DNA from: Nostoc sp. DedSLP01
Lineage (GTDB): Bacteria; Cyanobacteriota; Cyanobacteriia; Cyanobacteriales; Nostocaceae
DNA length: 23,383 nt
Assembly (NCBI GenBank): GCA_034530875.2
Contig: JAVRCJ020000069.1
Coordinates: forward strand, 1 to 23,383
Direction of reading: 5' to 3'
Shown: in pieces, positions 5,674 through 23,180 of the stretch
How the letters are laid out: every line of letters begins with the position of its first letter
Position numbering within the stretch: the stretch's first letter is position 1
Position numbers and translations under genes: made by a program
Notes under the pieces: generated by a model
Database searches by the model: none
What the model was told of the DNA's origin: nothing
The model's input: only the letters and a program-made list of their open reading frames with translations

Positions 5674-6831
5674 TCACGCAAGCCAACTGTAAACATAATT
5701 TTTGTCTTCCAAAGCCATAGCATTCGTCGTCAGTCTCAATGGTCGAAAAGTATCAATCATCACAGCAAGTTCGTTAGTTCGTTCTTTGCCGATTGACCCT
5801 TCGTACATCCCTGGGTGCGGGCCATGAGGAATACCACTCGGATGTAAGGTGATCGAGCCTCGCTCAATTCCTTTGCGAGACATAAATTTGCCCTCAACGT
5901 AGTAGATAACCTCATCTGAATCGACATTAGAGTGATTGTATGGGGCTGGAATTGCCTGGGGATGATAGTCAAACATTCGCGGTACAAAGGAACACAAGAC
6001 AAAGCCAGGGCCATCAAAGGTTTGATGCACGGGTGGTGGCTGGTGTATTTTGCCTGTAATTGGCTCAAAGTCCTCAATATTGAATGCAAATGGCCAAAGA
6101 TGTCCATCCCAGCCAACTACATCCAGAGGATGATGTTTATACAAGTAACGACTAAACCCACCGCGAGCTTTGAGTAATACCTCAAACTCTCCTTCTTCAT
6201 CGTGAGTAATCAGTGCTGATGGCGGACGAATATCTCGCTCGCAATAAGGTGCGTGTTCGAGGAATTGACCGTACTGATTGAGATAGCGTTTGGGTGGCTC
6301 AATATGCCCGTATGCTTCGATCACAAGCATTCGCTGCTGTACTTCTTCATCTGGCAAAATGCGCCAAACAACCCCAGTCGGAATCACCAGATAATCCCCC
6401 GGTCTATAGTGGATGATTCCATACTGACTTTCTAGAACACCCCTGCCTTCGTGAATGAAAATTACTTCATCTCCATGTGCAAAACGATACCAATATTGCA
6501 TAGGTGCTGTAGGCACAGCTACGGAAATACAGACATCTGCATTGGCTATTAAAGGAATCCGAGATGCAATAGCATCGCCTTGAGCAGTTAGAGTTGCTGT
6601 ATGCAGATGACGGTGGCTCAGGGGAACCGATTCTTCATAAGATATATCTCTTTTGCTCTCCAGCAAAATTTTCTGGATTTGAGTGGGTGGATGCAGGTGG
6701 TAAAGCAGGGATTGAATACCCGAAAAACCACGAGTTCCCATCAGTTCTTCGTGATATAAAGAACCATCAGTTTGATGAAATTGAGTGTGGCGTTTATGAG
6801 GAATATTTCCTAATTTGTAGTAATAGGTCAT
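5674..6831 (-). CDS. hmgA: Homogentisate 1,2-dioxygenase
   Basis: HHPLDVVGWDG, IHQPPPVHQTF, FVPR, PYNHSNVDSDEV, IPHGPHP and ELAVMIDT motifs; adjacent to hppD. Confidence 0.95.
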   Translation of the reverse strand: MTYYYKLGNIPHKRHTQFHQTDGSLYHEELMGTRGFSGIQSLLYHLHPPTQIQKILLESKRDISYEESVPLSHRHLHTATLTAQGDAIASRIPLIANADVCISVAVPTAPMQYWYRFAHGDEVIFIHEGRGVLESQYGIIHYRPGDYLVIPTGVVWRILPDEEVQQRMLVIEAYGHIEPPKRYLNQYGQFLEHAPYCERDIRPPSALITHDEEGEFEVLLKARGGFSRYLYKHHPLDVVGWDGHLWPFAFNIEDFEPITGKIHQPPPVHQTFDGPGFVLCSFVPRMFDYHPQAIPAPYNHSNVDSDEVIYYVEGKFMSRKGIERGSITLHPSGIPHGPHPGMYEGSIGKERTNELAVMIDTFRPLRLTTNAMALEDKNYVYSWLA

Positions 6832-6886
6832 GGTTTTACCCCGCTTGTTTGGGTTTACCGTAGCTCCTTCTTTAAAACGGCATCAT

Positions 6887-7975
6887 CTAAAGATTTCCTC
6901 GCCGCGCTTGCTCGCGCTCAATTGCTTCAAACAAAGCTTTGAAATTTCCCTCTCCAAAGCCTTGGCAGCCATGTCGCTCAACTACCTCAAAGAACAGTGT
7001 TGGTCGATCTTCTACAGGCTGAGTGAAAATTTGTAACAAATAACCATCGCGATCGCAATCTACAAGGATTCCTAATTCTGCTAGTTTATCCAGTGGCTCT
7101 TCAATTTTCCCTACCCGTTCTTCTATGTTCTCGTAGTAGGTTGGAGGAATGTTGAGAAACTCAACCCCTGTTGCTCTAAGTCGGGAAACCGTCTCGATAA
7201 TGTTGCTGGTTGCAAGGGCGACGTGTTGAATTCCAAGACCCTGATTATATTCTAGATATTCTTCAATTTGAGACTTCCGTTTGCCTTGGGCTGGCTCATT
7301 GATCGGCAATTTGATTTTACCTGTACTGTCCTGCATCACTTTGGACATCAAGGCAGAGTATTCTGTGGAAATAGTTTCATCGTCAAAGTGTATTAATAGC
7401 TCAAAACCCATAGTATCAGCGAAGAACTTAGCCCACCGCTCCATACCACCCAGTTCGACATTACCAACTACATGGTCAATGTTAGTTAGACCTACTCCCT
7501 TTCCCTTAGCTGAGTCTCGAGGCTGAAAACTAGGTGCGAAAACTCCAGTGTAATTACTGCGCTCTACAAACTTGAGCAAAATATCGCCATAGATGTGAAT
7601 AGCAGCGTAGCGAATTATTCCATATTCGTCTTTTTCTTCAGTGGGTGGAATTGCTCCCACTGCACCCCGCGCGGTTGATTCCTGGTAGGCACTGGCGGCA
7701 TTAGGAACTTCCAGCGCAATAACAGCTATGCTATCGCCGTGCTGAAGTACACTTTTACAGATGGGATGATTTGGATTCAAGCCACTACTTAAAAGAAAGC
7801 GAATTTCGCCTTGCTCCATAACATAGGAAGCCGTTTTGCGATCGCCAGTTTCTAAACCCCGGTAAGCTGTATTGGTAAATCCGAAAGCTTGGGAGTAAAA
7901 CAGTGCTGCTTGCCTGGCGTTACCTACATAAAATTCAAGGTGGTCGAATCGTTGAATCGGAAAAAAATCATTCAC
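6887..7975 (-). CDS. hppD: 4-hydroxyphenylpyruvate dioxygenase
   Basis: DHVVGNV, SQIEEYL, GIQHVAL, GYLLQIFT, FFEVVER and GFGEGNFKALFEAIEREQARRGNL. GTG start with an AAGGAGG RBS. Confidence 0.97.
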   Translation of the reverse strand: MNDFFPIQRFDHLEFYVGNARQAALFYSQAFGFTNTAYRGLETGDRKTASYVMEQGEIRFLLSSGLNPNHPICKSVLQHGDSIAVIALEVPNAASAYQESTARGAVGAIPPTEEKDEYGIIRYAAIHIYGDILLKFVERSNYTGVFAPSFQPRDSAKGKGVGLTNIDHVVGNVELGGMERWAKFFADTMGFELLIHFDDETISTEYSALMSKVMQDSTGKIKLPINEPAQGKRKSQIEEYLEYNQGLGIQHVALATSNIIETVSRLRATGVEFLNIPPTYYENIEERVGKIEEPLDKLAELGILVDCDRDGYLLQIFTQPVEDRPTLFFEVVERHGCQGFGEGNFKALFEAIEREQARRGNL

Positions 7976-8059
7976 GGTAATTCCTCCTTTCGGGAACTAC
8001 AGTTATTAGTAGAAGGGAAGAAATAAAAGTAAAAGAGTAATATCAAGACAGTCTATTTA

Positions 8060-8079
8060 TGCAATACAAAAATATTGCA
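8060..8079. promoter_or_regulatory. Candidate operator palindrome in the divergent hppD / hypothetical-fahA promoter region
   Basis: TGCAATA-caaaaa-TATTGCA, perfect 7-bp arms. Confidence 0.4.
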
Positions 8080-8298
8080 GATACGTTCGTATTTTTGCGC
8101 CTATCCTGCGATTTCTGCTTTGCAGTGCTTGTCTAATGCGCTTTTACGTAAATTAATTTTTCTACCTATTTTAAGTATAGATATGTCAACAAGAAAATTT
8201 ACAAGTATGTAACTAAAAATTAACCAGAGCAATTAAAGTTCTAGATTTACATCGGTTAATTCTGAGTTAGCATGATTTTAGTCAGGAGATTATCTCCA

Positions 8299-9186
8299 AT
8301 GCTGGCATTGATAAAAACACTGTTCTCATCAATTGTTGACTATGCTGGACTGTTCCCCCCAGCAAAACTCACTATGGAAGAGGCGATCGCCAATTATGCT
8401 CGCTATCAAAATACTTACCACCACTGGATGTTAGGGAACTTTGTACTACCAGTGTCGCGGATAAATGAGTTTGAACAACTGCTTTTAAAGTTGCCTATAG
8501 AAGGGAGTAAAACTAAACACTGGCGGCTCAGTTTAATAATCTCTCAAGAAGTGGAGTCGGCGATCGCCAAAATTCAAGCTCTAAATGACAATCATAGAAT
8601 AGCGATCGCCTCCCTAGAATTTCCGCCGCTTTCCCTGAGAGAAATTGATAAAGTATTTCCCGATCTTCCTGCTGACATTGAGGCGTTTTTTGAAGTTCCT
8701 TATAATGAGGACTTGAAAGCATATTTAACTTTACTGCAACGCCCTGGTATATCGGCTAAAATTCGCACTGGCGGATTGAGTGCCGAGTCTTTTCCTACTA
8801 TTTCTCAGCTTTATGGGTTTATCTTTGCTTGTGCTGAAGCTCAAGTTGCTTTTAAAGCAACTGCTGGACTGCATCATCCCCTACCAGGGAGCTATCCCTT
8901 AACATACGAGCCAGATAGCTCTAATGCGATGATGCATGGCTTTGTGAATGTAGCAGTCTTAGCAGCACTGGTTTATTGGCAGAAGGTAACTGCACAAGAA
9001 GCCCTAGTAATTCTTAAAGAGTCCACTATCGAAAGTTTCCAAATTTCAGCAGATAGCATTGTTTGGAAAGACCGCCAACTGAACATCTGGGAGCTACAAA
9101 AGGCTCGGCAAAGTTTCTTTCGTTGTTTTGGCTCTTGCTCATTTCAAGAACCCATAGAATCACTCCAGAATCTGAAACTGTTATGA
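8299..9186 (+). CDS. Conserved hypothetical protein translationally coupled to fahA
   Basis: Enzyme-like motifs VDYAGLFPPA, AKIRTGG, FKATAGLHHP, MHGFVN and FGSCSFQEP. AGGAG at 8284-8288 favours ATG 8299 over 8272. Its stop overlaps the fahA start (ATGA). Confidence 0.8.
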   Translation: MLALIKTLFSSIVDYAGLFPPAKLTMEEAIANYARYQNTYHHWMLGNFVLPVSRINEFEQLLLKLPIEGSKTKHWRLSLIISQEVESAIAKIQALNDNHRIAIASLEFPPLSLREIDKVFPDLPADIEAFFEVPYNEDLKAYLTLLQRPGISAKIRTGGLSAESFPTISQLYGFIFACAEAQVAFKATAGLHHPLPGSYPLTYEPDSSNAMMHGFVNVAVLAALVYWQKVTAQEALVILKESTIESFQISADSIVWKDRQLNIWELQKARQSFFRCFGSCSFQEPIESLQNLKLL

Positions 9187-10502
9187 GCCGTTCAATCGAT
9201 CGAACTCACGATCCAAATTTGCGTAGTTGGGTGGAATCTGCCAATCAAAAGGATACTGATTTTCCCATTCAGAACTTACCTTTTGGCGTGTTTCGCCATC
9301 GTAATGGTATCCGAAGCTCGCGAATTGGGGTAGCGATCGGCAACCAAATTCTAGATTTGACATCATGTTACCAGTCAAGACTGCTCCAAGAACTTCCCGA
9401 ACAATTGCAAGCAGCTTGTACGGCTGCTAACTTAAATCCCTTGATGGCTTTAGGAAGTTGGGCTTCATCGGCATTGCGTACTCGCCTGAGCGAATTGCTG
9501 CGCTGGAATGAACAAAAGCCTTCGTCGGAGGCAAAACTGTTAGTGCCGATGGTAGAAGCTGAACTTTTATTACCTGCGAACATTGGCGATTATACTGACT
9601 TTTACGCTTCTATTTTTCACGCCACCAACGTTGGAAAGCTATTCCGTCCTGACAATCCCTTACTCCCTAACTACAAATACGTTCCTATTGCCTACCACGG
9701 ACGAGCCTCTTCCATTGTACCCAGTGGTACATCTATCAAGCGCCCCCAAGGTCAGCGAAAAGCTCCTGAAGATACTGTGCCTCATTTCGGTTCTTCTGTG
9801 TCTCTAGACTATGAAGTGGAGGTCGGCTTTCTGATTGGTGCTGGCAATCAACTAGGACACCCCATATCTATTGCCAACGCAGAGTCACACGTGTTTGGAC
9901 TTTGCTTAGTCAATGACTGGTCAGCACGGGATATCCAAGCTTGGGAGTACCAGCCCTTGGGTCCCTTCCTCAGCAAGAGCTTTGCCACGACGATTTCTCC
10001 TTGGGTGGTAACTTTGGAAGCTCTGGCACCTTTCCGTTGCCCTGCTTTTGAACGTTCCCAGGAAGATCCGTCGCCCCTACCTTATCTGTCTGGCTCAATT
10101 AATACCAGAGTGGGTGGAATAGATCTGATACTTGAAGTGCTACTTAATTCGGCACAGATGCGCGAGCAAGGGATAGAGCCATTTTCTATGAGCCATGCTT
10201 CTTTTAAACAAATGTACTGGACAATAGCTCAGATGATTGCTCACCACACTAGTAATGGTTGCAATCTCCGCCCTGGAGATTTACTAGCTAGTGGAACAGT
10301 TTCTGGTACTGAATTAGGTTCTCAAGGATCTCTGCTAGAAATCACTCGGCGTGGTTCTCAGCCTATTAAACTAGCAACAGGTGAGATCCGAACTTTCCTG
10401 GCTGATGCAGACGAAGTTATTATTCGCGGATACTGTGAGAAAGAAAACTATGCCAGAGTCGGGTTCGGAGAGTGTCAAGGCATAGTTTTTGCTGCCGAAT
10501 GA
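9183..10502 (+). CDS. fahA: Fumarylacetoacetase
   Basis: DFPIQNLPFGVF, GDYTDFYAS.FHATNVG, YHGRASS, LDYEVEVG and NDWSARDIQAWEYQPLGPFLSKSF. Start ATG 9183 lies in an ATGA overlap. Confidence 0.95.
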   Translation: MSRSIDRTHDPNLRSWVESANQKDTDFPIQNLPFGVFRHRNGIRSSRIGVAIGNQILDLTSCYQSRLLQELPEQLQAACTAANLNPLMALGSWASSALRTRLSELLRWNEQKPSSEAKLLVPMVEAELLLPANIGDYTDFYASIFHATNVGKLFRPDNPLLPNYKYVPIAYHGRASSIVPSGTSIKRPQGQRKAPEDTVPHFGSSVSLDYEVEVGFLIGAGNQLGHPISIANAESHVFGLCLVNDWSARDIQAWEYQPLGPFLSKSFATTISPWVVTLEALAPFRCPAFERSQEDPSPLPYLSGSINTRVGGIDLILEVLLNSAQMREQGIEPFSMSHASFKQMYWTIAQMIAHHTSNGCNLRPGDLLASGTVSGTELGSQGSLLEITRRGSQPIKLATGEIRTFLADADEVIIRGYCEKENYARVGFGECQGIVFAAE

Positions 10503-10661: not shown

Positions 10662-11837
10662 TTAAAACTTGAGTATTTCCCAGTCATAGTTGTCGGGAAA
10701 AGGTTGTATTTCCCAGACTATGCTTTCTCCTGCTTCTAAGGCAACTTCTACGTACAATTGTTCTACAGCCGTTGTAGCTACATCTTCGTTATTGGGAAAA
10801 GGCTGTAAATCTTCGGTGAGTAATCGCAGTTTAAAACCACCAGGAATAGCTGCACCGACGGCGGCGTTACGTAATTCAAAACGCCAAATAGTTGCATCTT
10901 GATTATTTTGTGGTGCGATCGTCATCTCATAGATTTGGCCTGCGATCGCCAACCGACGAGAGAGAATAGTACTTGGTTGTGTGTCTTCCACACCCCGCGC
11001 CTCAGCAGCACTCAGTTGTAAATCAAAGCTTCTCCAACCGACAGCCTCAGCAACTTGAGAAATACCGCTTTGCAACCATTGGATAATTGACCATTGTTCT
11101 GGTAATCCTAAGCGTTGTTGATATAAATTTTGTCGCCAACCGCCATGTTGAATTAATCCACCCCACAGTTGAAAAGGGATTTCTTGCCGGGGTGTAAGTA
11201 TTTCCGGGTTTCCCAGACGGGCTATTAAATTTTGTGCTTGTTGTGGCGATAAATTGGGAATCTCTTGAATAGTGCTACGGGTGGGTTCTTCCGGACACAA
11301 TTGACGCGCCAGAGCTAAAACGCTGATGTCGTTGATTATATCAGTAGCATCCAGGGAATAAGTGCGATCGCTGGCATCATAACTACCTTGAGTTTTCAGT
11401 TTTTCATGGTTGCAATAACCCCAAATCCTGACGTAGCCTTCATCTGGCTCGACTTGCACAGCTAAATAATAATCACCTACCCAACTAGGAATATCCACCC
11501 ATTCTTGAGGTACTCGGAATTCACTCAAATCAATTGCTTCACTAGGTATCAAGACTAATCTGGTTGCCTCAAGGGTGAGTGCAATTCCATTAACCAGTTC
11601 CCAAAAACTGGGTAAAGCAGTAGTACTTGGCCAAACCTTTGTTTGTGGCGTCCAGTCTTCTTGCAACCATAGCAAGATAGCACCCAGGCAAAGTTGATTA
11701 ATATAAGCTTGATAGCGAGAATTAGCATTAGAAAAAGCTTGACTGTCCAAATCCGCTTGGTTTTGCAGAATTATAGGGATTTCTAAAACCAGATCTGTTG
11801 AGCTAGCGAAAGTAAATACAGTGGTGTCAATAGTCAT
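10662..11837 (-). CDS. DUF1822-like protein (candidate sigma-factor partner / anti-sigma)
   Basis: AYINQLCL, LPSFWELVNG, FRVPQEWVDIPSWVGDYYLAVQV, RIWGY and a C-terminal GFKLRLLTEDLQPF domain, typical of the cyanobacterial genes that follow these sigma-like factors. Start set at MTIDTT because the upstream extension runs through STRR-like DNA. Confidence 0.75.
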   Translation of the reverse strand: MTIDTTVFTFASSTDLVLEIPIILQNQADLDSQAFSNANSRYQAYINQLCLGAILLWLQEDWTPQTKVWPSTTALPSFWELVNGIALTLEATRLVLIPSEAIDLSEFRVPQEWVDIPSWVGDYYLAVQVEPDEGYVRIWGYCNHEKLKTQGSYDASDRTYSLDATDIINDISVLALARQLCPEEPTRSTIQEIPNLSPQQAQNLIARLGNPEILTPRQEIPFQLWGGLIQHGGWRQNLYQQRLGLPEQWSIIQWLQSGISQVAEAVGWRSFDLQLSAAEARGVEDTQPSTILSRRLAIAGQIYEMTIAPQNNQDATIWRFELRNAAVGAAIPGGFKLRLLTEDLQPFPNNEDVATTAVEQLYVEVALEAGESIVWEIQPFPDNYDWEILKF

Positions 11838-11999
11838 GGCGATTACTCTTGGGGATTGGGCATTGGAAATTTGCAAGTTTGAGATTCTGAGGTAGATGGA
11901 TAGAGAACTTAAGGAGATGAACGAAGCTTTGAAGTGGACGAACAAACTCCCACTTGTCCCTACCTCTGGCTACCTCCCCTGCCCCGTTCCAATTCCCAG

Positions 12000-13166
12000 T
12001 CATACAGCATAGTAATTTTTCAACCATTCCTCCATTAATGTGTTTATACTATGCAGTAGGTCTGAGGTAAGAGAAATATGCAAACTATCTTTACTCCAGT
12101 TAGCTAAAAAGCGTAACAAAGTTTCTTGGGCTTTTTTTAGTCGCCGCGAGACAGTATACTGCTGTATTTGTAATTGTTTGGCAATTTTGTCTTGAGTTAG
12201 TTCTTTAGCATAATAAAGTTGTAATATTTCTTGTACTTGCGGTTCGAGTTCAGCGATCGCAGCTACTAAAACTTTGTTAATTTCAGTTTGTTGAAACTTT
12301 CTTGTTTGTTCTTCTTCTTGAGCAAGAATTTGATTAATTAGAGATTCTTGCTGTGTTTCAGGAATATTATCAAGCCATTCCCACGAATCATCACCACCTT
12401 TAGGGATATTAAGAGAGTCAACCCTAAAATAACGATAGCGGCGTGCAGCTTTAGCCGCATTTAAAAGCCACTTTTCTAGGGTTTGGTAATTTACTTGCTG
12501 ACCGCTTTGGCAATTATAAGCTTTAGCGATCGCCTCCCAAGTCTCATTGTCTGGTTGGGAAATTTGACGAGAAGTACCTTTTTGAGTTGGGATATATAAA
12601 GTTTTGAAACAGTTCCAAGCTAGGACATAAGCATTAATATCCTCTGGTAATAAGGCTGCATTTTGTAAAGACTCTACCAAAAACTTTTTAGTGATTTTTC
12701 GTAATAGTCCCCAATCTGTACAAATATCAATTTCACGATTTTGGCGTAAATTTTCCCGAATAGCACTGCTAAAGATGGCACTGGCGTAGTTTTTTAAAAT
12801 AAAGCCTCGATCTGGATTAAATCCTTTGAGGACTTTATCAACTTGAGCGATGGCAATTTGAAAACAGTCTGATAATTTGTACTGAGTACTCGCAAAACTG
12901 TTAACTGTTTTTTGGGATGCCCAATAACAGGATTCTTGCAAGTAAGCCGCAAGATGCTGTTTAGCTAGTAGCGTTGTTTCAGGAACGAGCCAAAATTTAT
13001 ACCAATATAAAATCCAAAAATTTTCCGAAGTTTCTTGAGGAGTGCGGTTGAGACAACTTTGGATACTGCGACGTAACCTTGATTCCGTCGCCCAACCACT
13101 GAAGCGATCGGCGTCAAATTGCACAAAAGTTGAAAAGATTTCAATGATGCTTTGCCGAGGATGCAT
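12000..13166 (-). CDS. Atypical cyanobacterial sigma-70-family (HetZ-related) RNA polymerase sigma factor
   Basis: Region-2-like HLAAYLQESCYW and KGFNPDRGFILKNYAS; region-4 HTH ILQLYYAKELTQDKIAKQLQIQQYTVSRRL. Confidence 0.8.
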   Translation of the reverse strand: MHPRQSIIEIFSTFVQFDADRFSGWATESRLRRSIQSCLNRTPQETSENFWILYWYKFWLVPETTLLAKQHLAAYLQESCYWASQKTVNSFASTQYKLSDCFQIAIAQVDKVLKGFNPDRGFILKNYASAIFSSAIRENLRQNREIDICTDWGLLRKITKKFLVESLQNAALLPEDINAYVLAWNCFKTLYIPTQKGTSRQISQPDNETWEAIAKAYNCQSGQQVNYQTLEKWLLNAAKAARRYRYFRVDSLNIPKGGDDSWEWLDNIPETQQESLINQILAQEEEQTRKFQQTEINKVLVAAIAELEPQVQEILQLYYAKELTQDKIAKQLQIQQYTVSRRLKKAQETLLRFLANWSKDSLHISLTSDLLHSINTLMEEWLKNYYAV

Positions 13167-13202
13167 AAAAAATTGGAACCCAACCTATAGGAAGAGTGAA
13201 AG
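13162..13202 (+). promoter_or_regulatory. Conserved promoter-like motif, copy 1 (faces the 144-aa secreted protein gene; overlaps the sigma start codon)
   Basis: TGCATAAAAA-attggaaccc-AACCTAT-aggaag-AGTGAAAG. Confidence 0.7.
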
Positions 13203-13350
13203 CGTTAAAGGACGCCTACACAAACTTTACTACAAGGTGTGAGGATTATATTTCGACTTAAATGAAATATTTTATACTTAGCCAACTGGTAATCATGTCT
13301 ACTTATCAATAAGTTACAAAAACAATTACGAATAATGGAGTGTGACTAAA

Positions 13351-13785
13351 ATGTTGAAACGTTCTATGAGTATTATTGCTGCTAGTAGCATCTTAACTAC
13401 TGCTTTAATCAATCCTGCTTTAGCTGTACCTGCTGACTTTATTGGTACTTGGGTAAATAAAGATGCCAATACTTCTAATATTACTCGTTTAGTAATTACC
13501 TCAGGTGGTAGCAATAAATTAAATATTCAGGTGTTTGGCAAATGTCATCCTAGTGATTGTAATTGGGGAACTGCACCATTACTTACCTATGGTATTAATG
13601 TCCAAGATACTAATCATAAATATGCAACAGCCAACTATAATAAAGGGTTTGCAAATTCCTTCCTCACCTTGGGATCTGCTGGTCAAGAATTACTGTTGCA
13701 AGGCTATACGCAGTTTTTAGATAATAGCGGCAGGCAGAATTACTATTCTCGTGAATACTTTCAAAAGCAAACAAGAGTGAGATAA
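13351..13785 (+). CDS. Secreted hypothetical protein (144 aa, beta-rich, CHPSDCNWG motif)
   Basis: Sec-type signal MLKRSMSIIAASSILTTALINPALA|VP, GTWVN motif and a C-x4-C pair. GGAG at 13337-13340 favours ATG 13351 over GTG 13342. Confidence 0.8.
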   Translation: MLKRSMSIIAASSILTTALINPALAVPADFIGTWVNKDANTSNITRLVITSGGSNKLNIQVFGKCHPSDCNWGTAPLLTYGINVQDTNHKYATANYNKGFANSFLTLGSAGQELLLQGYTQFLDNSGRQNYYSREYFQKQTRVR

Positions 13786-13818
13786 ACGATCGCTAGAAAT
13801 CAGCTTTATCCCAGCATT

Positions 13819-13842
13819 AAACCTCGCCTATGCGGGGTTTTT
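13819..13842 (+). terminator. Intrinsic terminator after the secreted protein gene
   Basis: AAACCTCGC-ctat-GCGGGGTTT followed by TT. Confidence 0.7.
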
Positions 13843-13886
13843 CTATTTGTATTCAAAAAATAATTTTCAAAAAATTTCCCCAAGGC

Positions 13887-13927
13887 TGCATAAAAATATC
13901 CAAGCAAACCTATTGACTAAGTGAAAG
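13887..13927 (+). promoter_or_regulatory. Conserved promoter-like motif, copy 2 (faces the precursor-ATP-grasp operon)
   Basis: TGCATAAAAA-tatccaagca-AACCTAT-tgacta-AGTGAAAG; all three blocks and both spacer lengths are identical to copy 1. Confidence 0.75.
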
Positions 13928-14121
13928 GTGAAACTGGAAAACTCTAATCGGAGCTTTTAAACAGTTGTCGCACTATCATATTTTACTTAATCAAGTAATC
14001 TTGTTTTCATCTGTCACGAATGAGTTACAGGAGAAAAAAGATGAAACATAAGTAGCCGTAAACATGTGATAAATCGAGTCACAGCAATAAAAGTAATAAA
14101 TCAACTTAAAGGAGAATCGCA

Positions 14122-14553
14122 ATGAAGATTACAACTTCAACTTCTACACGTTTAGCATTAGTAATGGGTTTAGCGATCGCTAATTCAATTATCAGTACTG
14201 TAGCTAAAGCTGAATCTATCCCTAATTTAGTAGTTTCTGATAGCTATAGCGTATCAAATAAGCCTTTTATTACTAATTCTGCCCGTCGTGACACTCTTCA
14301 TAATTTGAATCAACGACCGTTGAATAGTGTTTTAGAAACCGACGGTGGTAAAACAAAAGAATCGAGTGATAAAGGCAAAGATTCTAGCGATAAAGGTAAG
14401 GATAGTAAAGAGACTTGCGAAAGCGGTAACTGTGGTGGTGGTTTTCTAGATAGAGCTAATCCAGTTATTTTACCAGCAGATCAACTGAAAGTTCCTGTAC
14501 TACAAAATGTACGTCCTCAAAGTTTAATTAAAGCTAACAAGCCAATCTTCTAG
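14122..14553 (+). CDS. Secreted low-complexity protein; putative RiPP (graspetide-like) precursor / ATP-grasp substrate
   Basis: AAAGGAG RBS; signal peptide ending VAKA|ES; central GGKTKESSDKGKDSSDKGKDSKETCESGNCGGG; lies directly upstream of two ATP-grasp-type genes. Confidence 0.7.
   Translation: MKITTSTSTRLALVMGLAIANSIISTVAKAESIPNLVVSDSYSVSNKPFITNSARRDTLHNLNQRPLNSVLETDGGKTKESSDKGKDSSDKGKDSKETCESGNCGGGFLDRANPVILPADQLKVPVLQNVRPQSLIKANKPIF
14362..14403 (+). repeat. Two 21-nt coding tandem repeats (SSDKGKD x2)
   Basis: tcg agt gat aaa ggc aaa gat / tct agc gat aaa ggt aag gat: four differences, all synonymous. Confidence 0.9.
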
Positions 14554-14559
14554 AAAAAC

Positions 14560-14592
14560 AGATTCCCGACTTCTTCAAGAAGTCGGAAATCT
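14560..14592. repeat. Palindromic hairpin between the precursor and enzyme genes
   Basis: AGATTCCCGACTTCTT-c-AAGAAGTCGGAAATCT (16-nt arms, one mismatch); resembles a common Nostocales dispersed palindrome. Confidence 0.75.
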
Positions 14593-14627
14593 AAGCCTCC
14601 CATGAGAAAAATTATGGACTAAATACT

Positions 14628-15413
14628 ATGGATTTATTAATTATTGGTTCGAGTGATGACATTTTTTGCCAAGCAGTTAACGAATTGGTTAGACAAAAAG
14701 GTTATGCGAGTGCAATTTTAGATGTTTGCAATGCTGCAAGAATGTTTTCTATCAGTGTTACTTCTGGAAAATCATATATTACACCAGAAATCCCAGTTAT
14801 TTTACGTATTCCGCCACAGACGCCGATTCGCGCTAGTTTTGATGATTCTTTTATTTATGATGAGTGTCTTGCTACTTTATGGGCAGCGATGACATTATCT
14901 AAATCACCAGTAATTAATCGTCCAACTGCAAATAGTCTTTGGGGTAATTTATCGTATTCTTCTAACTTGACTAAATTAAAGGCTGGTTATACTAGCAATC
15001 TAGAAGTATTCTCTTCACAAGTTCCACCATCGCCGCAAGCATTACTCGATAAACAATGGTATCTTCAAGATTTAACTACTTATAATACTGCTGCATATCC
15101 AGAAATTCCTCAAGGGGTGGGGCCATTTCGCGCAAGTTGGGTTTCGCCTAACCTGGAATATGAAATTGTTGTTGTTTTAGAAGATAAAGCATGGCGTTGC
15201 ACCAATACATCTCTAGAACATTTGCAGTTAGAAGAAAAAAGTATTTCGCTATTGAGAAATTTAGATTTGGTATTTGGTACTGTAACTTGGAGTATTGATA
15301 GCAACCTAGAAAGTGCCAATATTGCTCGTATCAACCCTTATCCATCGCTGGAAGAAATACAGTTTGTTTGGTCGGATTTTGCTCCCGCACTTTTGGAGAA
15401 TATTTTCTCATGA
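14628..15413 (+). CDS. Degenerate ATP-grasp-like protein
   Basis: Collinear with its neighbour: PVINRP (cf. NVINRP), LDLVFGTVTW (cf. LGLKFAGWDF) and ARINPYP (cf. LEVNPMP). It lacks the metal-binding D/E residues and is ATGA-coupled to the next gene. Confidence 0.6.
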   Translation: MDLLIIGSSDDIFCQAVNELVRQKGYASAILDVCNAARMFSISVTSGKSYITPEIPVILRIPPQTPIRASFDDSFIYDECLATLWAAMTLSKSPVINRPTANSLWGNLSYSSNLTKLKAGYTSNLEVFSSQVPPSPQALLDKQWYLQDLTTYNTAAYPEIPQGVGPFRASWVSPNLEYEIVVVLEDKAWRCTNTSLEHLQLEEKSISLLRNLDLVFGTVTWSIDSNLESANIARINPYPSLEEIQFVWSDFAPALLENIFS

Positions 15414-17044
15414 TTTATGCAATTGGCCTTGATTCAGACCGCACTTTTTGTCATTTTGTTAACTACGCTGAATCTCGTGGTGTCGAAGTACAAGTAATTA
15501 ATTTACGCGAAGTAATTCAAAATGGAGATTGGCGGCTAGCGTTACCCGATGATAATGAAAGTTGGATAAGTTTTTCTAGCGAAAAGTACATATTAAATCC
15601 TCATGGTTCTTATTATTGTCGCTTGATTGACCTTTCAACCGTACAATCAGATTTACAAGATGCGATGCGATGGAAAAGTCTTCTTGCTGCACTTTGCTGT
15701 TGGCTAGAACATATTCCCGGTAACGTAATTAATCGTCCTGGTGCTGGTGGTAATAATTTCTCAAAACCGCTTCATGAATTTCATCTGCAATCTTTAGGTT
15801 TTCAAGTTGCTGATAGCATTACCAGTTCCAATCCAGAAATTCTAGCTGAGTTTGCTAACGCTGGATTAACAATTGTTAAGACAACATCAGGCGTTCGTGC
15901 CGATAGTAGACTGGTAAAATCAGAGGAGTTTCTCGATTTCCACCCAGACGCTGGCCCAGTTCATTTACAAAGATATATACACGGTGCTGATGTGCGCGCC
16001 CATGTAGTGGGTAATAGAGTTCACGCAGAATTGATAAAATGTCCGCAGGTAGACTATCGCCATTTTCATGAAGAAGCTGAGTATATCGAGTGGGAGTTAC
16101 CAGAAGCTTTACACCAAAAAATTATTAGTGCAACTGCCGCATTGGGGTTAAAGTTTGCAGGTTGGGATTTTAAAGTTACCAACGATTTAGAGTACTGGTG
16201 TTTAGAAGTTAATCCAATGCCGGGATACGATGGATATGATATTCGGGCAGATGGTAAAATAACAGATTCGCTGTTAGCTTTGCTGACAGAAGATATTACA
16301 GAAAATAGTATTAGTTGGTATGCAGATTCGAGGAATGAAATTTTCTCAGAACAAATTGTGACAGTCGAACAGTGTAATGATATTTGTTCTGTAATTCATA
16401 GTTTAAGAGAATTATGGATAAAACGAGGAAACTCTCCAAAGTTTTTCTATACTTTAGGTACAGCTAGTTATTTAGATTTCTTAAATCAACCTAATTTTTC
16501 TAGAGATTATTATACTATAGCTCGTGAATATAATCTAATTCTAGAAGAACACTTAGGTTGGCTTTATAAGTTAGTTAAAGAATATTTAGAGCAGACGCTT
16601 ATAAACCCTGTAATGTATAAACCAGGTGCAGCACTGCCCGGTTTTCATATTTGGCAAAATGCTAATCTTATTACTAAACCCAATGCTACTACACACTTCG
16701 ATTTGCAGTACCGAAACATCAAATGGGATGAAGATAAACTCGATACTGTAAACACAATATCCTTTACTTTACCAATTAAACTACCTAAAAGTGGTGGTGG
16801 TTTGAATGTTTGGGATTTCAACTATATCAATGATTATAGCCAAGCGATCGCAGGTGATGTAGACATTCTTAAACGATTTAGAACTAAAACTTTTCATCGC
16901 TATAAAGTTGGTGAAATTGTTTTACACAGCGGACATACACTTCATCAGATTGCACCAACTACTTACATTTATCCTGACGATGAAAGAATAACTCTACAAG
17001 GTCATGGGTTATTTTGTGATGGTCAATGGTTACTGTACTGGTAA
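15410..17044 (+). CDS. RimK-like ATP-grasp ligase fused to a C-terminal 2OG-Fe(II) oxygenase domain
   Basis: ATP-grasp motifs: NNFSKP, IVKTTSGVRA, HLQRYIHGADVRAHVVG, DYR, FAGWDF, CLEVNPMPGY. Oxygenase motifs (from ~16335): HFD (HxD), SGGGL, HTLHQIAP, DERITLQGH. Start ATG 15410 lies in an ATGA overlap. Confidence 0.85.
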   Translation: MIYAIGLDSDRTFCHFVNYAESRGVEVQVINLREVIQNGDWRLALPDDNESWISFSSEKYILNPHGSYYCRLIDLSTVQSDLQDAMRWKSLLAALCCWLEHIPGNVINRPGAGGNNFSKPLHEFHLQSLGFQVADSITSSNPEILAEFANAGLTIVKTTSGVRADSRLVKSEEFLDFHPDAGPVHLQRYIHGADVRAHVVGNRVHAELIKCPQVDYRHFHEEAEYIEWELPEALHQKIISATAALGLKFAGWDFKVTNDLEYWCLEVNPMPGYDGYDIRADGKITDSLLALLTEDITENSISWYADSRNEIFSEQIVTVEQCNDICSVIHSLRELWIKRGNSPKFFYTLGTASYLDFLNQPNFSRDYYTIAREYNLILEEHLGWLYKLVKEYLEQTLINPVMYKPGAALPGFHIWQNANLITKPNATTHFDLQYRNIKWDEDKLDTVNTISFTLPIKLPKSGGGLNVWDFNYINDYSQAIAGDVDILKRFRTKTFHRYKVGEIVLHSGHTLHQIAPTTYIYPDDERITLQGHGLFCDGQWLLYW

Positions 17045-17239
17045 TATAATCTTCCTAATCTATCACAATTCTTTAGATAGAAAACTTAGCGGCTGAGGAC
17101 TAAAATTCAGTTTTGATGAATTCTGTATAGCAATCTTATCTAAGTTGTAAGTTTATGCTAGTTTTAGCTTAAAGTACAAATAGCATATCATTATGAAAAA
17201 CTTTTTGAGAAAGTTTTGGCATCTTTGCATATATTTTGA

Positions 17240-17316
17240 TGCACATAACAAGACTCCCCTGTAGTCCTCACTTAGCAAGGTAGGGGGACAGCGACAGTCG
17301 GGGAGAAATATATGCA
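17240..17316. repeat. Degenerate palindromic dispersed-repeat / MITE remnant
   Basis: Arms TGCACATA/TATATGCA and CTCCCC/GGGGAG flank a GC-rich hairpin core within AT-rich intergenic DNA. Confidence 0.45.
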
Positions 17317-17333
17317 ACTTCACAAAAAAAATA

Positions 17334-17446
17334 GGCGTTGCTGAATAAAGGGATGAAAATTAAAAATCTGATTTCTCTCTCCTCTTACTCTCTGCACCTC
17401 TGCGTCTCTGCGTGAGATAAAAATCATCCCACCAATCAGTAACGCC
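17334..17446. mobile_element. 113-bp MITE-like element with 23-bp imperfect terminal inverted repeats
   Basis: Left end GGCGTTGCTGAATAAAGGGATGA; right end reverse-complemented GGCGTTACTGATTGGTGGGATGA; internal CTCTGC(AC/GT) octamer tandem. Confidence 0.75.
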
Positions 17447-17498
17447 AGAAAATGGTATTACGCAGTAAAAACCTGAAACCTCATTTAGGATTACTATA

Positions 17499-20400
17499 AT
17501 GTCACCAATTGGAATCCCCAGTCGCTCAACTTCAGTCAAACAAACTGCAATTCCTAAGCTGTGGCTCATGTTGGTGGGAGTCAATAAATATCAAGATGAC
17601 GGACTACCCAGCCTTAATTATTCAACAGTAGATTGTCAGGGTTTAGCAGAAGCATTGGTAGATGCAGCCGCACAATTTACCGAAACAGAGGTGAAAATAT
17701 ATCATGATTTTGCACCGCAACCACCATCTTTAGAAAACATCCGTGCCAGTCTCCGACAAATTACCACTGCGGCTCAACCTATTGATACTATTTTATTTTA
17801 TTTTTCCGGACATGGGATTGTAGAACCAAACACGCAGCAAGCATTTTTGTGTTTGGCAGATACTCAAAAATCCGATCTTCAAAACACAGCTTTAGCTTTA
17901 CAAGAACTTTTACAATTATTGGGTAATAGTGGGGCGCAAAATCAGCTTGTTTGGCTAGATGCTTGTCATAGCGGCGGGATGACACTCAGAGGTATAACAA
18001 AAGAACCATTGCTGAACGCTACAACAAAAATGGTTGAAGTTTTACAACAATGCGCTGCTAAAAGTAAAGGTTTTTATGCTTTGCTTTCCTGCGATAATAA
18101 CCAGCAATCTTGGGAGTTTCCCGAATTGGGACATGGGGTGTTTACTTATTATTTAATGAAAGGGTTGCAAGGTGAGGCAGCAGATAACCAAGGCTTAATT
18201 TATGTGGATAATTTATATCGATATGTATATCATAAAACTCTCCAATATATAGATAAAAGCAATCAACAGTTACGGCTGATTAATCAGCAGAAAAAAAATA
18301 AAGGAGAAACTCAAATTTTTCGAGAATATCCGTTACAAACTCCCAAGCGAATTGTTGAGGGAGTCGGAGAACTAATTGTAGGCAGAGGATTAACTACGGT
18401 AACTCTTGGGGTGCGTCGGATAGGAATAGTAGTAGAGGGATTATCAGTTAGCAAAACAACACTAGATATTAGCAAATTTCTCGGAAATACTGGGGATTTT
18501 ACACTAGAGTATTTGCCAGCAACAAAAGTATCTGCCGATCGCCTCAAAGAAGCGATCGCTAGTGATTTACAACAACCAGCATCAGAAGTTATTCTACTTT
18601 ATCTGCGGGGACGAATTGAAGAAACTGAAACAGGCGAATGGTTATTGCTGGGAGAAAATATTCGTATCAAGCGTTCCTGGTTGAAACAACAGCTACGCCA
18701 ATGCAGCGCTCAACAAATTATCATCCTCGATTGTCCTGTAGCTAATACATGTTTGCAAGATTGGGTAGAAGATTTGCAACTTGACTCCCACCAAGGACAA
18801 TGTATCATAGCCTACGCCTCGCCTGCTGATGCACCAGAACGCTTCGCCGAAAAATTTCTCGATACTTTGATGGCAGCTTCCCAAGCAGATGGACTCTCAG
18901 CCGCCGCAGCGATCGCTCAACTACAACTATCCTTGGCAGGTAGCGGTGTTCCTCTTTACATCTGGCTATCAGGCAGACAAGGCATTATAGAAATTCTCCA
19001 AGCAAAAACGGGAGCAAACACGCCAAAATCAACCACAGGATTGGATTTGGGAGTATGCCCTTATATGGGGCTAAGTGCTTTTTCCGAACAAGATAGCCAG
19101 TATTTTTACGGTAGAGAAGCCTTAACTCAGGAGTTAATTCACCAACTACGCGATCGCTCTTTTTTAGCCGTCATCGGTGCTTCCGGAAGCGGCAAATCTT
19201 CAATTGTCCAAGCTGGTGTAATTCCCCAACTGCGATTGGGCAAACAAATACCCAGTAGCGAACAATGGTGGATTAGAAGCATTCGTCCCGGAGCAAATCC
19301 GCTTGAAGCTTTAGCGCAGCAGCTTGGGGGAGCAGGGGAGCAGGGGAGCAGAGGGGCAGAGGAAGCAGGGGGAGTAAAAGAGCAAAAGAATTATTCTTAT
19401 CCAATCCCCAGTCCCCAGTCCCCAGTCCCCAGTCCCCAATCCCCCCATCTTTTGTTAGAGGGAATATTTCACCAAGGGGTAGAGGGATTTGTTTACTGGA
19501 TACGCAATCAACCCCATCGAGTTGTGGTGCTAGTGATAGATCAGTTTGAGGAACTGTTTACTTTAGCTCCAAGCCCAGATAGAGAGCTATTTTTAGAATT
19601 ATTGCTGGGAGCAGTGCAATATGCTGGCGATCGCTTCAAATTAATTATTACTTTACGGGCAGACTTTATTGCCTCCTGTTTAGAAGTACCAGCACTGGCT
19701 AAAGCTTTGCAGGATTTGAGCATATTAGTTCCACCGAAGCTAAGTTTGGATGATTATCGACGGGTGATTCTCAACCCAGCTCAACAAGTCGGGTTAAAAG
19801 TAGAACCAGAACTAGTGGAAGTATTATTGCGAGAGCTAAATCGCTCACCAGGAGATTTACCATTACTAGAATTTGTTTTAGAGCAATTATGGCAACATCG
19901 AGTTGCTGGTGAGTTGACTTTACAAACCTATCAAGAGCAACTAGGCGGAATTCAAGGAGCATTAGAGCGATCGTCTCAGGCTGTTTACGAAAGTTTCGAT
20001 CCTCAAATGCAAGAATGCGCTAAATGGATTTTTTTATCTTTGACACAACTAGGTGAAGGTACAGAAGATACTCGCAGGCGGGTACATAAATCAGAGTTAA
20101 TAGTCAAAAAATATCCAGCCGCATTAGTAGAAAAAACCCTCAACGCCTTAACTGCTGCCAAGTTAGTAGTGATGAATTTAGAACAAGAAGAACTAACAAA
20201 AGGACAAGGTAGACAAGGAGAACAAGAAAAAATTTCTCCCCCTGCTTCCCCTGCCTCCCCCGCCCCCATAACAGTAGAAGTTGCCCATGAAATCCTCATC
20301 CGTCATTGGTCAACTTTACGCTGGTGGTTAGAAGAAAATCGCGATCGCTTGCGAAAACAAAGGCAAATTGAGCAAGCTTCACAATTGTGGCTACAACGCA

Positions 20401-22727
20401 GTCAGCAAGCTGATTTCTTATTACAAGGAGTGCGACTAGCTGAAGCAGAAGATATCTATATTAAATATACCGACGAACTTTCTGCTGATGTGCAACGGTT
20501 TATTGAAGCTTGTTTAGTACAAAGAAAACAACAGCAACTACAAGAAAAAAGAAGACTCAAGCAAGCTCAAAGGGCTGTAGTTGCACTCAGTATTTTAGGA
20601 TTAGCGGCTGTCTGTTTCGGCTCCTTAGCCTATTGGAAATCTCAAGCAGCCCAATTGCGAGAAATTGAAGCCTTAAATGCCTCATCTCAAGCTAATCTTT
20701 TGTCACATCAGCAGTTAGAAGCGCTGATTGCCAGTGTCAAAGCAGGTAAACAGCTAAAAAACACTCTTGTAGCACCAACCGATTTGCAAACTCAGACTTT
20801 GGGTGTTTTACAACAAGTAATTTCTGGAACCCAAGAGCGCAACCGCTTAGAAGGGCATAGCGCTGAAGTATCGAGCGTGAGTTTTAGTCCTGACGGTAAA
20901 ACAATTGTATCGGCTAGTAACGACAAAACAGCCATAATTTGGGGACATGATGGCACCAAGTTACGGACATTAACAGGGCATACTGGTACAGTCCGGAGCG
21001 TCAGTTTCAGCCCGGATGGTCAAACGATCGCAACAGCTAGTTTCGATCGCACCGTCAAGCTTTGGAGAACTAAGGACGGTTCTTTAATTAGAACCCTAAA
21101 CGGTCATACTGCGGAGGTTCTGAGCTTATCTTGGTCTACGAACGGCGAGACCATCGCCACAGGTAGCGCCGATGGCACTGCTAAAATTTGGAAAGTTAGC
21201 GATGGTCATTTGCTGAGAACTTTTAGCGGATATCGGGATTTTGTTAATTGTGTCAGTTTTAGCCCTGATGGGGAAATTTTGGCGATCGCTAGTGCAGATA
21301 AAACCGTTAAACTTTGGAGTGTTAGCGATGGAGCGTTGCGGCAAACCCTCCAAGGACATAGCGCCGGAGTCTCCAGCGTTGCTTTTAGCCCCGACGGCCA
21401 AACTCTAGCTTCAGCCAGTGAAGATAAAACAGTGAGACTATGGCACAGAGACGGCAGCTTACTGAGAATTATTCCAGCCCACAACGCAGAGATCCTCAGC
21501 GTCAACTTCAGTCATGATGGTCAAACCCTAGCTTCTACCAGCGCCGATAGCACAATCAAAATTTGGAGTTCTCAGGACGGCTCTTTACGTCAAACTTTAC
21601 TAGGGCATAGTATTGCAGTATACAGCGCCAGTTTTAGCCCCGATGACCAGACTTTAGTTTCGGCTGGCGCTGATAAAACTGTTAGACTTTGGCAGCTAGA
21701 TAATCCTCTATTCAAAACTCTCACAGGACATCAAGGTAAACTCTATAGTGTGAGTTTTAGCCCGAATGGGCAAATAGCCACTGCCGGTCAAGACACTACG
21801 ATAAAACTTTGGCAGCGTGACGGAACTTTGCGCCAAACCCTGGAAGGTTATGATACTTCAGTTTACGGACACAGTAAGGAAATCTACGGTTTAGCCTTCA
21901 GTCCTGACGGCGAGACATTAGCCTCAGCGAGTCTTGACCATTATATTAAACTTTGGCGGACTCGTGACGGCTATATGATTAAAACCCTTCAAGGGCATCA
22001 GCGCGAAGTCAATAGTCTCAGCTTTAGCCCTAATAGTCAAATTCTGGCAAGCGCCAGTGCTGATACGACCATTAAACTTTGGAATATTCAAACAAAAGCT
22101 TTAATTAAAACTCTCCAAGGGCATACGGCTGAAGTTTTGAGCGTCAGTTTCAGTCCTAGCGGTCAAGTACTGGCCTCAGCTGGTAGAGATAACAAAGTTT
22201 TGCTTTGGAGAGTTAAGGATGGTAAGTTACTGTATAGTCTGCCAGGACATACTAACGCTGTCAACGCCATTAGTTTTAGTCCTGATGGTAAAATACTCGC
22301 CTCGGCTAGTGCTGATAAAACGATTAAACTTTGGCAAGTCAGCAATGGAGCTTTACTACAAACTCTTACGGGACATACTGATAGCATCTACAGCCTCAGC
22401 TTTAGTCCTGACGGCCAAACAATCGCCTCAGCTAGCGGTGATGGAAGCATCAAACTTTGGAACCGTGAAGGCAGAGAACTCAAAACTCTTCTAGGACATA
22501 CTGATGCAGTATTGAGCGTCAGTTTTAGCCCTGATGGGAAATTTTTGGCTTCTGCCAGTTTTGATGGTACAGCTAAACTTTGGCGTCTTCTGAGCGCGGA
22601 ACTGCAAACCCAAGATTTAGACAATCTACTGATTCGCAGTTGTAATTTACTAAAAGATTACCTCAAAACTAACCCCAAGATTAGCGATCGAGAACGGGGT
22701 TCGCTATGTTCAGATTTACGGAGCTAG
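17499..22727 (+). CDS. Caspase-family (peptidase C14) - degenerate caspase-like - STAND NTPase (nSTAND1-like) - TM helix - 14x WD40 protein
   Basis: Catalytic dyad motifs YFSGHG and [32 protein letters not shown]; Walker A GASGSGKS; Walker [36 protein letters not shown]; hydrophobic [23 protein letters not shown]40 array. Confidence 0.92.
19326..19446 (+). repeat. In-frame STRR block inside the NTPase domain
   Basis: GGGGAGCA-type repeats, then five CCCCA(G/A)T heptamers (19406-19440; STRR1); translated [15 protein letters not shown]...[15 protein letters not shown]. Confidence 0.9.
20202..20267 (+). repeat. Second in-frame STRR-like block
   Basis: GACAAGG-type and CCTGC(T/C)TCC-type 9-mers; translated GQGRQGEQ...[11 protein letters not shown]. 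Confidence 0.75.
20853..22583 (+). repeat. 14 WD40 repeats (likely two 7-bladed propellers)
   Basis: Counted 14 units of the form [21 protein letters not shown]. Confidence 0.9.
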
Positions 22728-23022
22728 AATCGATGGTGTTTTGTAAACCTGTACCCAGTTGCAACAAGACATCTCTGCGAGGAGGTTTAGGCCCCGGCCC
22801 TTTGACCGGCGTCGTACCACCGGTTGGCCCTGGAGATTCGCCATTCCCTGGGTTAGAGAGTTGATTTTGAATTGCAGGAGCTTGAAATTCTACTTGTACC
22901 TGAGTTGGTTGTAAACTACCAACTTTGGGTGCGATCGATTGTATGGGATTTGCCAAAGTGGGTAGAGCAGTGAATAATACTGTTGGTAACGCGATCGCTA
23001 AACTCAAAATTTGCTTTTGCAT
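22681..23022 (-). CDS. Secreted Pro/Gly-rich hypothetical protein (113 aa)
   Basis: Signal peptide [26 protein letters not shown]; purine-rich AGAGGAAAAAGG upstream; motif copy 3 upstream; 3' end overlaps the caspase gene by 47 bp. Confidence 0.7.
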
Positions 23023-23139
23023 ATCAAGCCTTTTTCCTCTTTAATATATACTTAAAGCTGAACTACTAGAGAGCCTATCCCTTTGCAGATATTTAGCTAC
23101 AAAGGCAAGCAACAGCATTCCAGATTGTAGGTTTAAAAC

Positions 23140-23180
23140 CCTTCAGAAACTTAATAGATCTAGTTGAGTTTTTTTATGCA
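23140..23180 (-). promoter_or_regulatory. Conserved promoter-like motif, copy 3 (faces the 113-aa secreted protein gene)
   Basis: Minus strand reads TGCATAAAAA-aactcaacta-GATCTAT-taagtt-TCTGAAGG; same spacing as copies 1 and 2. Confidence 0.65.

Follow-up and report, generated by a model that had tools for sequence, protein, structure and literature searches.

The 23,383-nucleotide contig JAVRCJ020000069.1 of Nostoc sp. DedSLP01 (GCA_034530875.2), the whole of which is the window analysed here, belongs to an 8.57-Mb genome with Nostoc species as its nearest named relatives and carries a block of genes in which a caspase-STAND-WD40 protein (hereafter the receptor) stands together with an oversized sigma-70-like factor, a DUF1822 protein and small genes with signal peptides. 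The parts of the block, their linkage and co-occurrence, and a promoter-like box of fixed spacing are evident from sequence, and at a rough probability of 0.55 they are read as a transmembrane protease-gated sigma switch, the output of which would be a battery of exported small proteins. In the mechanism proposed, a WD40 double propeller outside the cytoplasm would bind an outside cue, upon which the STAND domain would oligomerise and activate an Arg-preferring C14 protease. The protease would cleave the DUF1822 protein after Arg281, and the freed sigma factor would read the box, with TGCATAAA as its -35 element and, after N15, CTAT as its -10 element. Induction of the receptor gene would provide positive feedback, and the sigma factor would further induce a set of exported proteins that varies between strains and takes in one of three exchangeable modified-peptide cassettes. 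The peptides from these cassettes would be outputs, most likely for competition or defence, and not the ligand.

The block is a real conserved module that varies a kind already predicted; its regulon is well supported, its peptide cassettes are exchangeable and its candidate cut site can be tested, and what is new here is the coupling of the receptor to a sigma-DUF1822 pair, the content of the regulon and the swappable cassettes. Catalogues of caspase-STAND-WD40 proteins in cyanobacteria date back to 2010, and the usual view makes them cell-death proteins; the available part of that literature names no substrate for them. If the proposed mechanism is right, one of these proteins would act as a receptor in signalling, for which both the substrate (DUF1822, at Arg281) and the transcriptional output are named. 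Two protease families would then serve the sigma-DUF1822 module that was predicted in 2021, and a predicted signalling pathway would gain named targets and a candidate cut site. The box offers a direct reporter and points to exported small proteins and to three kinds of modified-peptide cassette, the signal-peptide precursors of which would escape peptide-mining by known leaders and cut-offs.

Every gene listed in a prediction made earlier from the letters of the window alone (the original prediction) was found at its position by profile matches and open reading frames (ORFs). The DUF1822 and sigma genes lie on the minus strand, and SP1, SP2, G1, G2 and the receptor gene lie on the plus strand; signal peptides were called by eye and with crude hydropathy. 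The features are as follows.

10662..11837, minus strand: DUF1822 protein, putative anti-sigma factor, 391 amino acids (aa) from its probable start (PF08852)
10995..10997, minus strand: Arg281 of the DUF1822 protein (A-R-G), candidate cleavage site inferred from conservation
12000..13166, minus strand: oversized sigma-70-like factor, 388 aa (TIGR02937, Sigma70_r4, weak Sigma70_r2)
13162..13188, plus strand: promoter-like box 1, TGCATAAA-N15-CTAT, divergent from the sigma gene and overlapping its start codon
13342..13785, plus strand: SP1, signal-peptide protein, 147 aa, no Pfam family
13819..13840, plus strand: terminator-like hairpin after SP1, from a consensus scan with a total count not above shuffles
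13887..13913, plus strand: promoter-like box 2, heading the exchangeable cassette slot
14122..14553, plus strand: SP2, graspetide-like signal-peptide precursor with a tandem SSDKGKD core (residues 81-94) and CxxxxC
14559-14593: strong hairpin of 16 pairs between SP2 and G1
14628..15413, plus strand: G1, 261 aa, partner of the ATP-grasp enzyme and possibly a degenerate ATP-grasp
15368..17044, plus strand: G2, ATP-grasp ligase fused to a 2-oxoglutarate-Fe(II) oxygenase-like domain, probable start 15410
17499..22727, plus strand: receptor-protease, 1742 aa (C14, pseudocaspase, nSTAND1, transmembrane (TM) helix, 14 WD40)
22681..23022, minus strand: SP3, signal-peptide protein, 113 aa, convergent with the receptor gene, with a Pro/Arg-rich core GP[RK]PP[RK][RK]
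23154..23180, minus strand: promoter-like box 3, upstream of SP3

Linkage of the receptor, the sigma factor and the DUF1822 protein

The comparison covered 53 loci, each encoding a relative of the protease module and all kin by descent (numbered with the prefix L). A sigma gene lies within the fetched flank of 33 of these loci and a DUF1822 gene in 31, and the sigma gene is adjacent in 28 of the 44 receptor loci having at least 7 kb of upstream DNA. Ten of the 20 unlinked loci were tested, and all ten genomes carry a sigma of the same branch elsewhere (branch support 0.99), with SP1 adjoining the sigma gene in four of the ten. The neighbourhood of receptor, sigma and DUF1822 that the original prediction had seen once is, by these counts, a conserved one in filamentous cyanobacteria.

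Across 41 genomes, the caspase-pseudocaspase module is present in 13, all of which have a sigma that is not CHAT-linked, while 11 genomes with full-length sigmas in CHAT-linked branches do not have the module and the remaining 17 give no full-length sigma match exceeding about 40% identity (two fragmentary matches stand outside this classification). The genome of DedSLP01 itself has three other full-length sigma-DUF1822 pairs, each beside a CHAT-CHASE2 sensor and two with DUF928. Because of the 13/13 co-occurrence, the lack of the module in the 11 CHAT-branch genomes and these CHAT-linked paralogues, the sigma family appears from sequence to be split by protease partner, with the present branch going with the C14 module. 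Three further, shorter DUF1822 genes in the same genome (L090, L091, L092) each adjoin an EACC2-type sensor gene, and two of them also have a short upstream regulator-like ORF.

The receptor proved to have the composition first described for it, a caspase with an intact His/Cys dyad followed by a STAND NTPase, a TM helix and 14 WD40 repeats. Peptidase_C14 occupies residues 24-230 (PF00656, 65.5 bits against a cut-off of 21.4), and His105 and Cys156 are invariant in 44/44 full-length homologues, window included. D45 and D154 are likewise kept in 44/44 and C46 in 43/44, and these three residues may form an acidic S1 pocket giving Arg/Lys preference, a tentative assignment; characterised non-animal C14 proteases favour Arg/Lys (PMC5756287). 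The protease domain has no CHAT or HetF match. A second caspase-like stretch (residues ~305-500) has Arg at the His position in 44/44 homologues and aligns with the first C14 domain in the correct register, with a match weak by itself (hhalign, E 0.053); two caspase domains are, though, given for this architecture by Kaur et al. 2021. The nSTAND1 domain follows at 521-971 (PF20703, 411 bits, E 1e-122), with both Walker motifs (GxSxSGKSS and hhhhDQFEE) intact in all 44 homologues, and a single hydrophobic 19-mer (residues 1026-1044, mean hydropathy 2.33) separates the NTPase from the 14 WD40 stretches found by profile search at the C-terminus. As the protease is N-terminal and cytoplasmic and there is one TM helix, the WD40 part should face outward. 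The caspase-pseudocaspase module is joined to a variable C-terminus, either STAND-TM-WD40, GUN4 (in some genomes) or an unnamed sequence. Within the receptor the WD40 part diverges faster than the caspase-STAND part (67% vs 93% identity between the tandem copies in L058); a second receptor copy in tandem occurs in L048, L049, L050, L054 and L058.

The sigma factor matches TIGR02937, the sigma70-extracytoplasmic function (ECF) superfamily, at 117 bits against a cut-off of 42.9, with Sigma70_r4 above its cut-off and Sigma70_r2 weak (E 0.007), and all 12 of its Foldseek matches at E<=0.001 are sigma chains, with low template-modelling scores. The DUF1822 family match is strong (PF08852, E 5e-119), with the start probably at 11837. 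The AlphaFold2 model of this protein (mean predicted local distance difference test, pLDDT, 72.6) consists of an N-terminal restriction-endonuclease-like alpha/beta domain, a helical middle, a low-confidence stretch (245-289) and a C-terminal Ig-like sandwich. VIA-align matches were middling for both ends, with DpnI (Z 8.1, root-mean-square deviation 3.6 over 141) and Hjc (Z 7.8) for the N-terminal domain and Ig-like folds (Z 6-7) for the C-terminal domain, and Foldseek of the whole model gave nothing at E<=0.001. DUF1822 is labelled TPR-like in the available part of Kaur et al. 2021 (PMC8195603), and the present model is not TPR-like. Within the 245-289 stretch, A/V-R-G/S is found at the Arg281 position in all 31 DUF1822 proteins aligned from the receptor loci and the window, while CHAT-linked DUF1822 proteins have G-M-R or F-x-F-R types there instead; Arg itself occupies this column in 46/53 proteins. 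The conservation is suggestive only, and on it Arg281 is put forward as a candidate cut site of the HetF/PatU3 kind. That the DUF1822 protein inhibits the linked sigma factor is judged probable, and that the receptor protease cuts it is given even odds.

The promoter-like box and its probable regulon

Exact copies of TGCATAAA-N15-CTAT number five in the genome, and three of them are in the window at 13162 (plus), 13887 (plus) and 23180 (minus), so that the common motif claimed upstream of the three signal-peptide genes is present as exact boxes. Other spacers (10-21) give 0-3 copies each in the same genome. A matrix scan of the genome placed the three window boxes at 52-57 bits, scores that are not independent of a matrix built from homologous loci, and the next site at 17. 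Across the 53 loci there are 71 sites with a spacer of 15 and, for spacers of 10-14 and 16-21 together, one. Two conserved blocks at fixed spacing and at a steady distance from start codons have the look of a dedicated sigma promoter, and the box very probably marks a real regulon of this sigma factor. Housekeeping-type promoter and terminator scans of the window gave counts not above shuffles, and five RNA runs contained 5-6% of the sampled words.

The box also occurs away from the sigma gene. A search for G1 in 301 genomes yielded three other genomes with the cassette, in each of which SP2-G1-G2 lies among unrelated genes and the precursor is preceded, at 103-111 bp, by an exact box; the sigma (56-70% identity) and the protease are encoded at other sites in all three. 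In five genomes (these three and two more) there are 21 exact box sites, compared with six for the reversed pattern; 16 of the 21 are 64-111 bp before small genes with a signal-peptide-like start, one is before a receptor gene and four are before neither. The fourth exact box of the DedSLP01 genome stands 86 bp before a 153-aa signal-peptide gene (L094:2158-2619, minus strand, contig C50), the protein of which has two Cys-containing repeats and no Pfam family. An exact box on contig C30, pointing antisense into another gene, was rejected as a regulon site and is regarded as chance. A set of off-locus genes recurs in four genomes, consisting of signal-peptide genes led by the box, about 210-220 aa long and in two families, together with a 140-aa gene (L174, L179, L175, L180, L183, L187, L185, L189).

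Because the box is directly upstream of the receptor gene in 14/53 loci, the receptor gene probably belongs among the targets of its own sigma factor. The shared-motif regulon of the original prediction stood insofar as the box marks exported small proteins, even distant from the sigma gene; the receptor target, the exchangeable cassette and the off-locus extent had been missed. In box 1, the first five bases read as the sigma start on the opposite strand and hence are also coding-constrained. The overlap of box 1 with the sigma start codon (13161-13166) is kept in distant genera (L116, L117, L118, L124, L188, L191) and could give negative autoregulation of the sigma gene through promoter interference.

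Exported products and exchangeable cassettes

The slot behind box 2 holds one of three cassettes, each a signal-peptide precursor with an ATP-grasp or radical-SAM maturase, and most receptor loci are without a cassette. Cassette A, that of the window, comprises SP2, G1 and the ATP-grasp/oxygenase enzyme and is found in nine further loci; cassette B pairs a Cys-rich signal-peptide precursor with a radical-SAM enzyme (four loci and one broken; TIGR04463 best, below cut-off); and cassette C pairs an aromatic-repeat precursor with a different radical-SAM enzyme (five loci; best model DynA, below cut-off). One small signal-peptide gene of the block had been placed beside peptide-modifying enzymes, and this is borne out by SP2 with G1 and G2. 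Residues S82, K84, G85, K86, D87 and K91 of SP2 are invariant in 12/12 aligned homologues, to 38% identity, and graspetide enzymes link Ser/Lys and Asp side chains, the types offered by the SSDKGKD core (PMC8939145). G1 has no Pfam or NCBIfam match and, as a lead only, falls near the RimK Atlas cluster (0.93, 33% of members); it is accompanied by SP2 and G2 in 9/9 loci. G2 falls below every graspetide model cut-off (TIGR04187, E 2e-16) and also below those of RimK (E 4e-4) and WelO5 (E 1e-3). The hairpin between SP2 and G1 (14559-14593) may set the precursor-to-enzyme ratio.

The SP1 family is present in 9/53 loci, and its nearest named Atlas cluster is Avidin (0.80), a weak lead to an avidin-like barrel. 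The SP3 family is found in 18/53 loci, with 19 representatives at E<=0.001, and elsewhere other Pro-rich signal-peptide genes occupy the same place. A CVNH gene is present in one locus. The nature of the regulon products (modified peptides, Cys-rich proteins and this CVNH gene) suggests a role in competition or defence.

Whether the WD40 part has a modified peptide as its ligand can be asked of the sensor itself. The original prediction had one product possibly feeding back in this way, an idea to which the position of the cassette directly upstream of the receptor gene, the signal peptide of the precursor and the polymorphism of the cassettes, resembling signalling specificity groups, would lend themselves. 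None of the 590 WD40 columns separates cassette A (10 rows) from cassette B (5 rows), and WD40 identity within and between cassette types (91.4/89.5%) is similar to that of the caspase-STAND part (92.3/91.2%). Near-sister receptors carry unrelated cassettes (L036 B vs L037 C; L040 A vs L053 C), and the many loci with no cassette speak against such a ligand as well. On these grounds the modified peptide is a highly improbable ligand and, because the WD40 sensor does not track cassette type, the modified peptides are best read as outputs.

Competing explanations and known systems

Several observations weigh against the protease-gated switch. In the window no box stands directly before the receptor gene, which follows box 2 at a distance of 3.6 kb, and 16 of the 44 loci with sufficient upstream DNA have no adjacent sigma gene. 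The shared descent of the 53 loci means that counts across them overstate independence, and the sigma of L109, one of the 13, moved between trees, and the broad branch has a support of 0.72. In the DUF1822 protein, R242 and R294 are conserved equally with R281, the homologue in L117 has Lys at the candidate cut site, and the low pLDDT comes from a 15-row alignment and is no proof of a flexible linker. Further, because the box adjoins CHAT-linked sigma genes (exact in L110 and as a one-base variant in L104, L107 and L146), a paralogous sigma could read it; the three CHAT-linked sigma loci of the DedSLP01 genome have no box with <=1 mismatch in 20 kb each.

The same variants near CHAT-linked sigmas would fit a box that serves a transcription factor or paralogous sigma, within a mobile island that gathers co-regulated genes with no signalling link. 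A near-identical locus on a plasmid (L034) and a patchy distribution within the genus (7/24) are consistent with such an island. The strict two-part promoter-type spacing, the tight 64-111 bp to start codons and the box-free CHAT-linked loci of the same genome argue the other way, and this explanation is considered improbable. A stronger competitor would make the receptor an output only, a death or defence protein resembling the NOD-like receptors (NLRs) that is induced with the exported proteins, while the sigma-DUF1822 pair answers to another input such as a CHAT-CHASE2 protease elsewhere. The box before the receptor gene in 14/53 loci would explain the linkage without cleavage, six EACC2-type CHAT-like sensor genes of the genome (three Pfam-typed, three seen as ORFs) adjoin other DUF1822 genes, and nSTAND1 proteins are described in counter-invader systems in the available part of PMC8195603. 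Set against this, each other full-length sigma-DUF1822 pair in the genome has an adjacent protease, a place that the caspase takes here; the residues preceding the DUF1822 Arg vary by protease type, being small with C14 and of the G-M-R or F-x-F-R types with CHAT; and the caspase-pseudocaspase module and the sigma branch occur together in 13/13 genomes, also where the sensor is of the GUN4 type. The output-only role is accordingly rated unlikely, though less so than the island.

A feedback loop for quorum or kin recognition, in which a Pro/Arg-rich SP3-type peptide and not the modified peptide is the WD40 ligand or antagonist, is compatible with the protease-gated switch and adds a step to it. 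Because a Pro-rich gene often follows the receptor gene, the WD40 part diverges faster and both change jointly in L043, the SP3-type peptide is a better candidate for the ligand than the modified peptide. The Pro-rich signal-peptide gene is box-led and convergent with the receptor gene in many lineages, and in L043 the caspase-STAND part groups with a Nostoc clade (0.998) and the WD40 part with another clade (0.999), in part of which the RPRPRGPGG type of peptide carried by L043 is also found. This is one swap only, and as the WD40 part and the peptide gene are adjacent a single recombination moves both; nine full-length receptors also have no downstream Pro-rich gene (L061, L063, L076, L078-L081, L083, L084). 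Complex prediction for the periplasmic part of the receptor with mature SP3 scored 0.00, which is evidence neither way, and the loop is a doubtful addition. Equally tentative is the fullest version of the protease-gated switch, in which an NLR-type receptor would cut an anti-sigma factor instead of killing and turn on a secreted arsenal, including modified peptides from precursors with Sec signal peptides, with three chemistries swapped behind one promoter, and a Pro/Arg-rich peptide co-evolving with the WD40 part as ligand or antagonist.

Among known systems, Kaur et al. (eLife 2021; PMC8195603) reported an ECF sigma and DUF1822 beside EACC2-caspase sensors and proposed that stimulus-induced peptidase activation leads to a transcriptional output. 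The present locus is alike in its adjacent ECF-like sigma, its DUF1822 protein and its caspase-superfamily protease fused to a variable sensor. It differs in having C14 and a pseudocaspase rather than CHAT, a STAND-TM-WD40 sensor and no DUF928 gene, and in having no EACC2 before the protease, as the C14 domain starts at residue ~24 and leaves no room for it; with the first 380 residues of two paralogous CHAT sensors as queries, BLAST did not match the receptor homologues. Since no EACC2 was found, the locus appears to work like the EACC2 systems and is not a member of them. The promoter box, the regulon and the cut site were not found in the available part of the same paper. Its supplement file 1 lists the CASPASE+CASPASE+nSTAND1+BetaPropeller architecture, naming no sigma or DUF1822 neighbour for it in the 21 of its 52 places covered here, with a listed sigma neighbour elsewhere in the supplements possible. 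The same receptor architecture is in the catalogue of cyanobacterial caspase-WD40(14) proteins of Jiang 2010 (PMC2853523), in the available text of which the word 'sigma' does not occur and no substrate or output is given. A literature search, largely outside subscription papers and partly covering the supplements of Kaur 2021, found nothing joining the receptor to sigma-DUF1822 or giving the box. The block had been called undescribed, which holds for the coupling, the regulon content and the swappable cassettes and not for sigma and DUF1822 beside caspase-family sensors or, separately, for the receptor architecture.

Protease-controlled release of a transcription regulator has precedents. In Anabaena PCC 7120, HetF, a membrane caspase-superfamily protease with outside repeats, cuts PatU3 after Arg (R117|S118); PatU3 binds HetZ, and the cut is proposed to free HetZ (PMC9457339). 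The inhibitor there is encoded with the regulator and binds it, as is proposed for the present locus, and HetF, unlike the present receptor, is a CHAT protease without STAND, as far as the available part of that paper goes. No homology of the sigma to HetZ or of DUF1822 to PatU3 was detected (hhalign on shallow profiles gave probabilities of 0.1 and 0.6), and because these pairs show no detectable profile similarity the precedent serves as an analogy only, which counts among the points against the switch. The genome has a separate hetZ-patU3 locus, and NF037963 has no match on the window contig. In type III CRISPR systems (Csx29/Csx30/CASP-sigma, CalpL/CalpT/CalpS and PCaspase/PCc-sigma), inhibitor cleavage by a protease releases a sigma factor (bioRxiv 2023.06.23.546230, available part). 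Unlike these, the window has no CRISPR or oligonucleotide-sensing part, and the input would be the transmembrane WD40 sensor. The cassettes resemble graspetide clusters, in that an ATP-grasp enzyme adjoins a precursor whose Ser/Lys/Asp core is repeated (PMC8939145), and, in B and C, resemble radical-SAM clusters for ribosomally synthesised and post-translationally modified peptides in having radical-SAM enzymes beside Cys-rich or aromatic-repeat precursors. They are unlike both in the Sec-type signal peptides of their precursors, in encoding neither a peptidase nor a transporter, in having maturases that all fall below family cut-offs and in the alternation of three chemistries behind a single promoter box. 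Of the PADLOC 2023 models only a generic caspase model matched (E 3e-17), and none matched the sigma, DUF1822 or SP1.

Beyond the block, window positions 5674-10502 hold a fumarylacetoacetase (Pfam) and a 304-aa ORF of no family, together with ORFs that by their sequence features are presumed homogentisate dioxygenase-like and hydroxyphenylpyruvate dioxygenase-like and would serve aromatic amino-acid breakdown; across the 53 loci, such genes are not seen again next to the module. Positions 1364-5538 hold presumed acyl-CoA synthetase-like and thiolase-like ORFs, likewise named by sequence features, as well as a redox ORF of heme-oxygenase-like type (PF14518, E 0.003). The plasmid locus (L034) belongs to Nostoc linckia and carries a 95-97% identical copy of the whole block.

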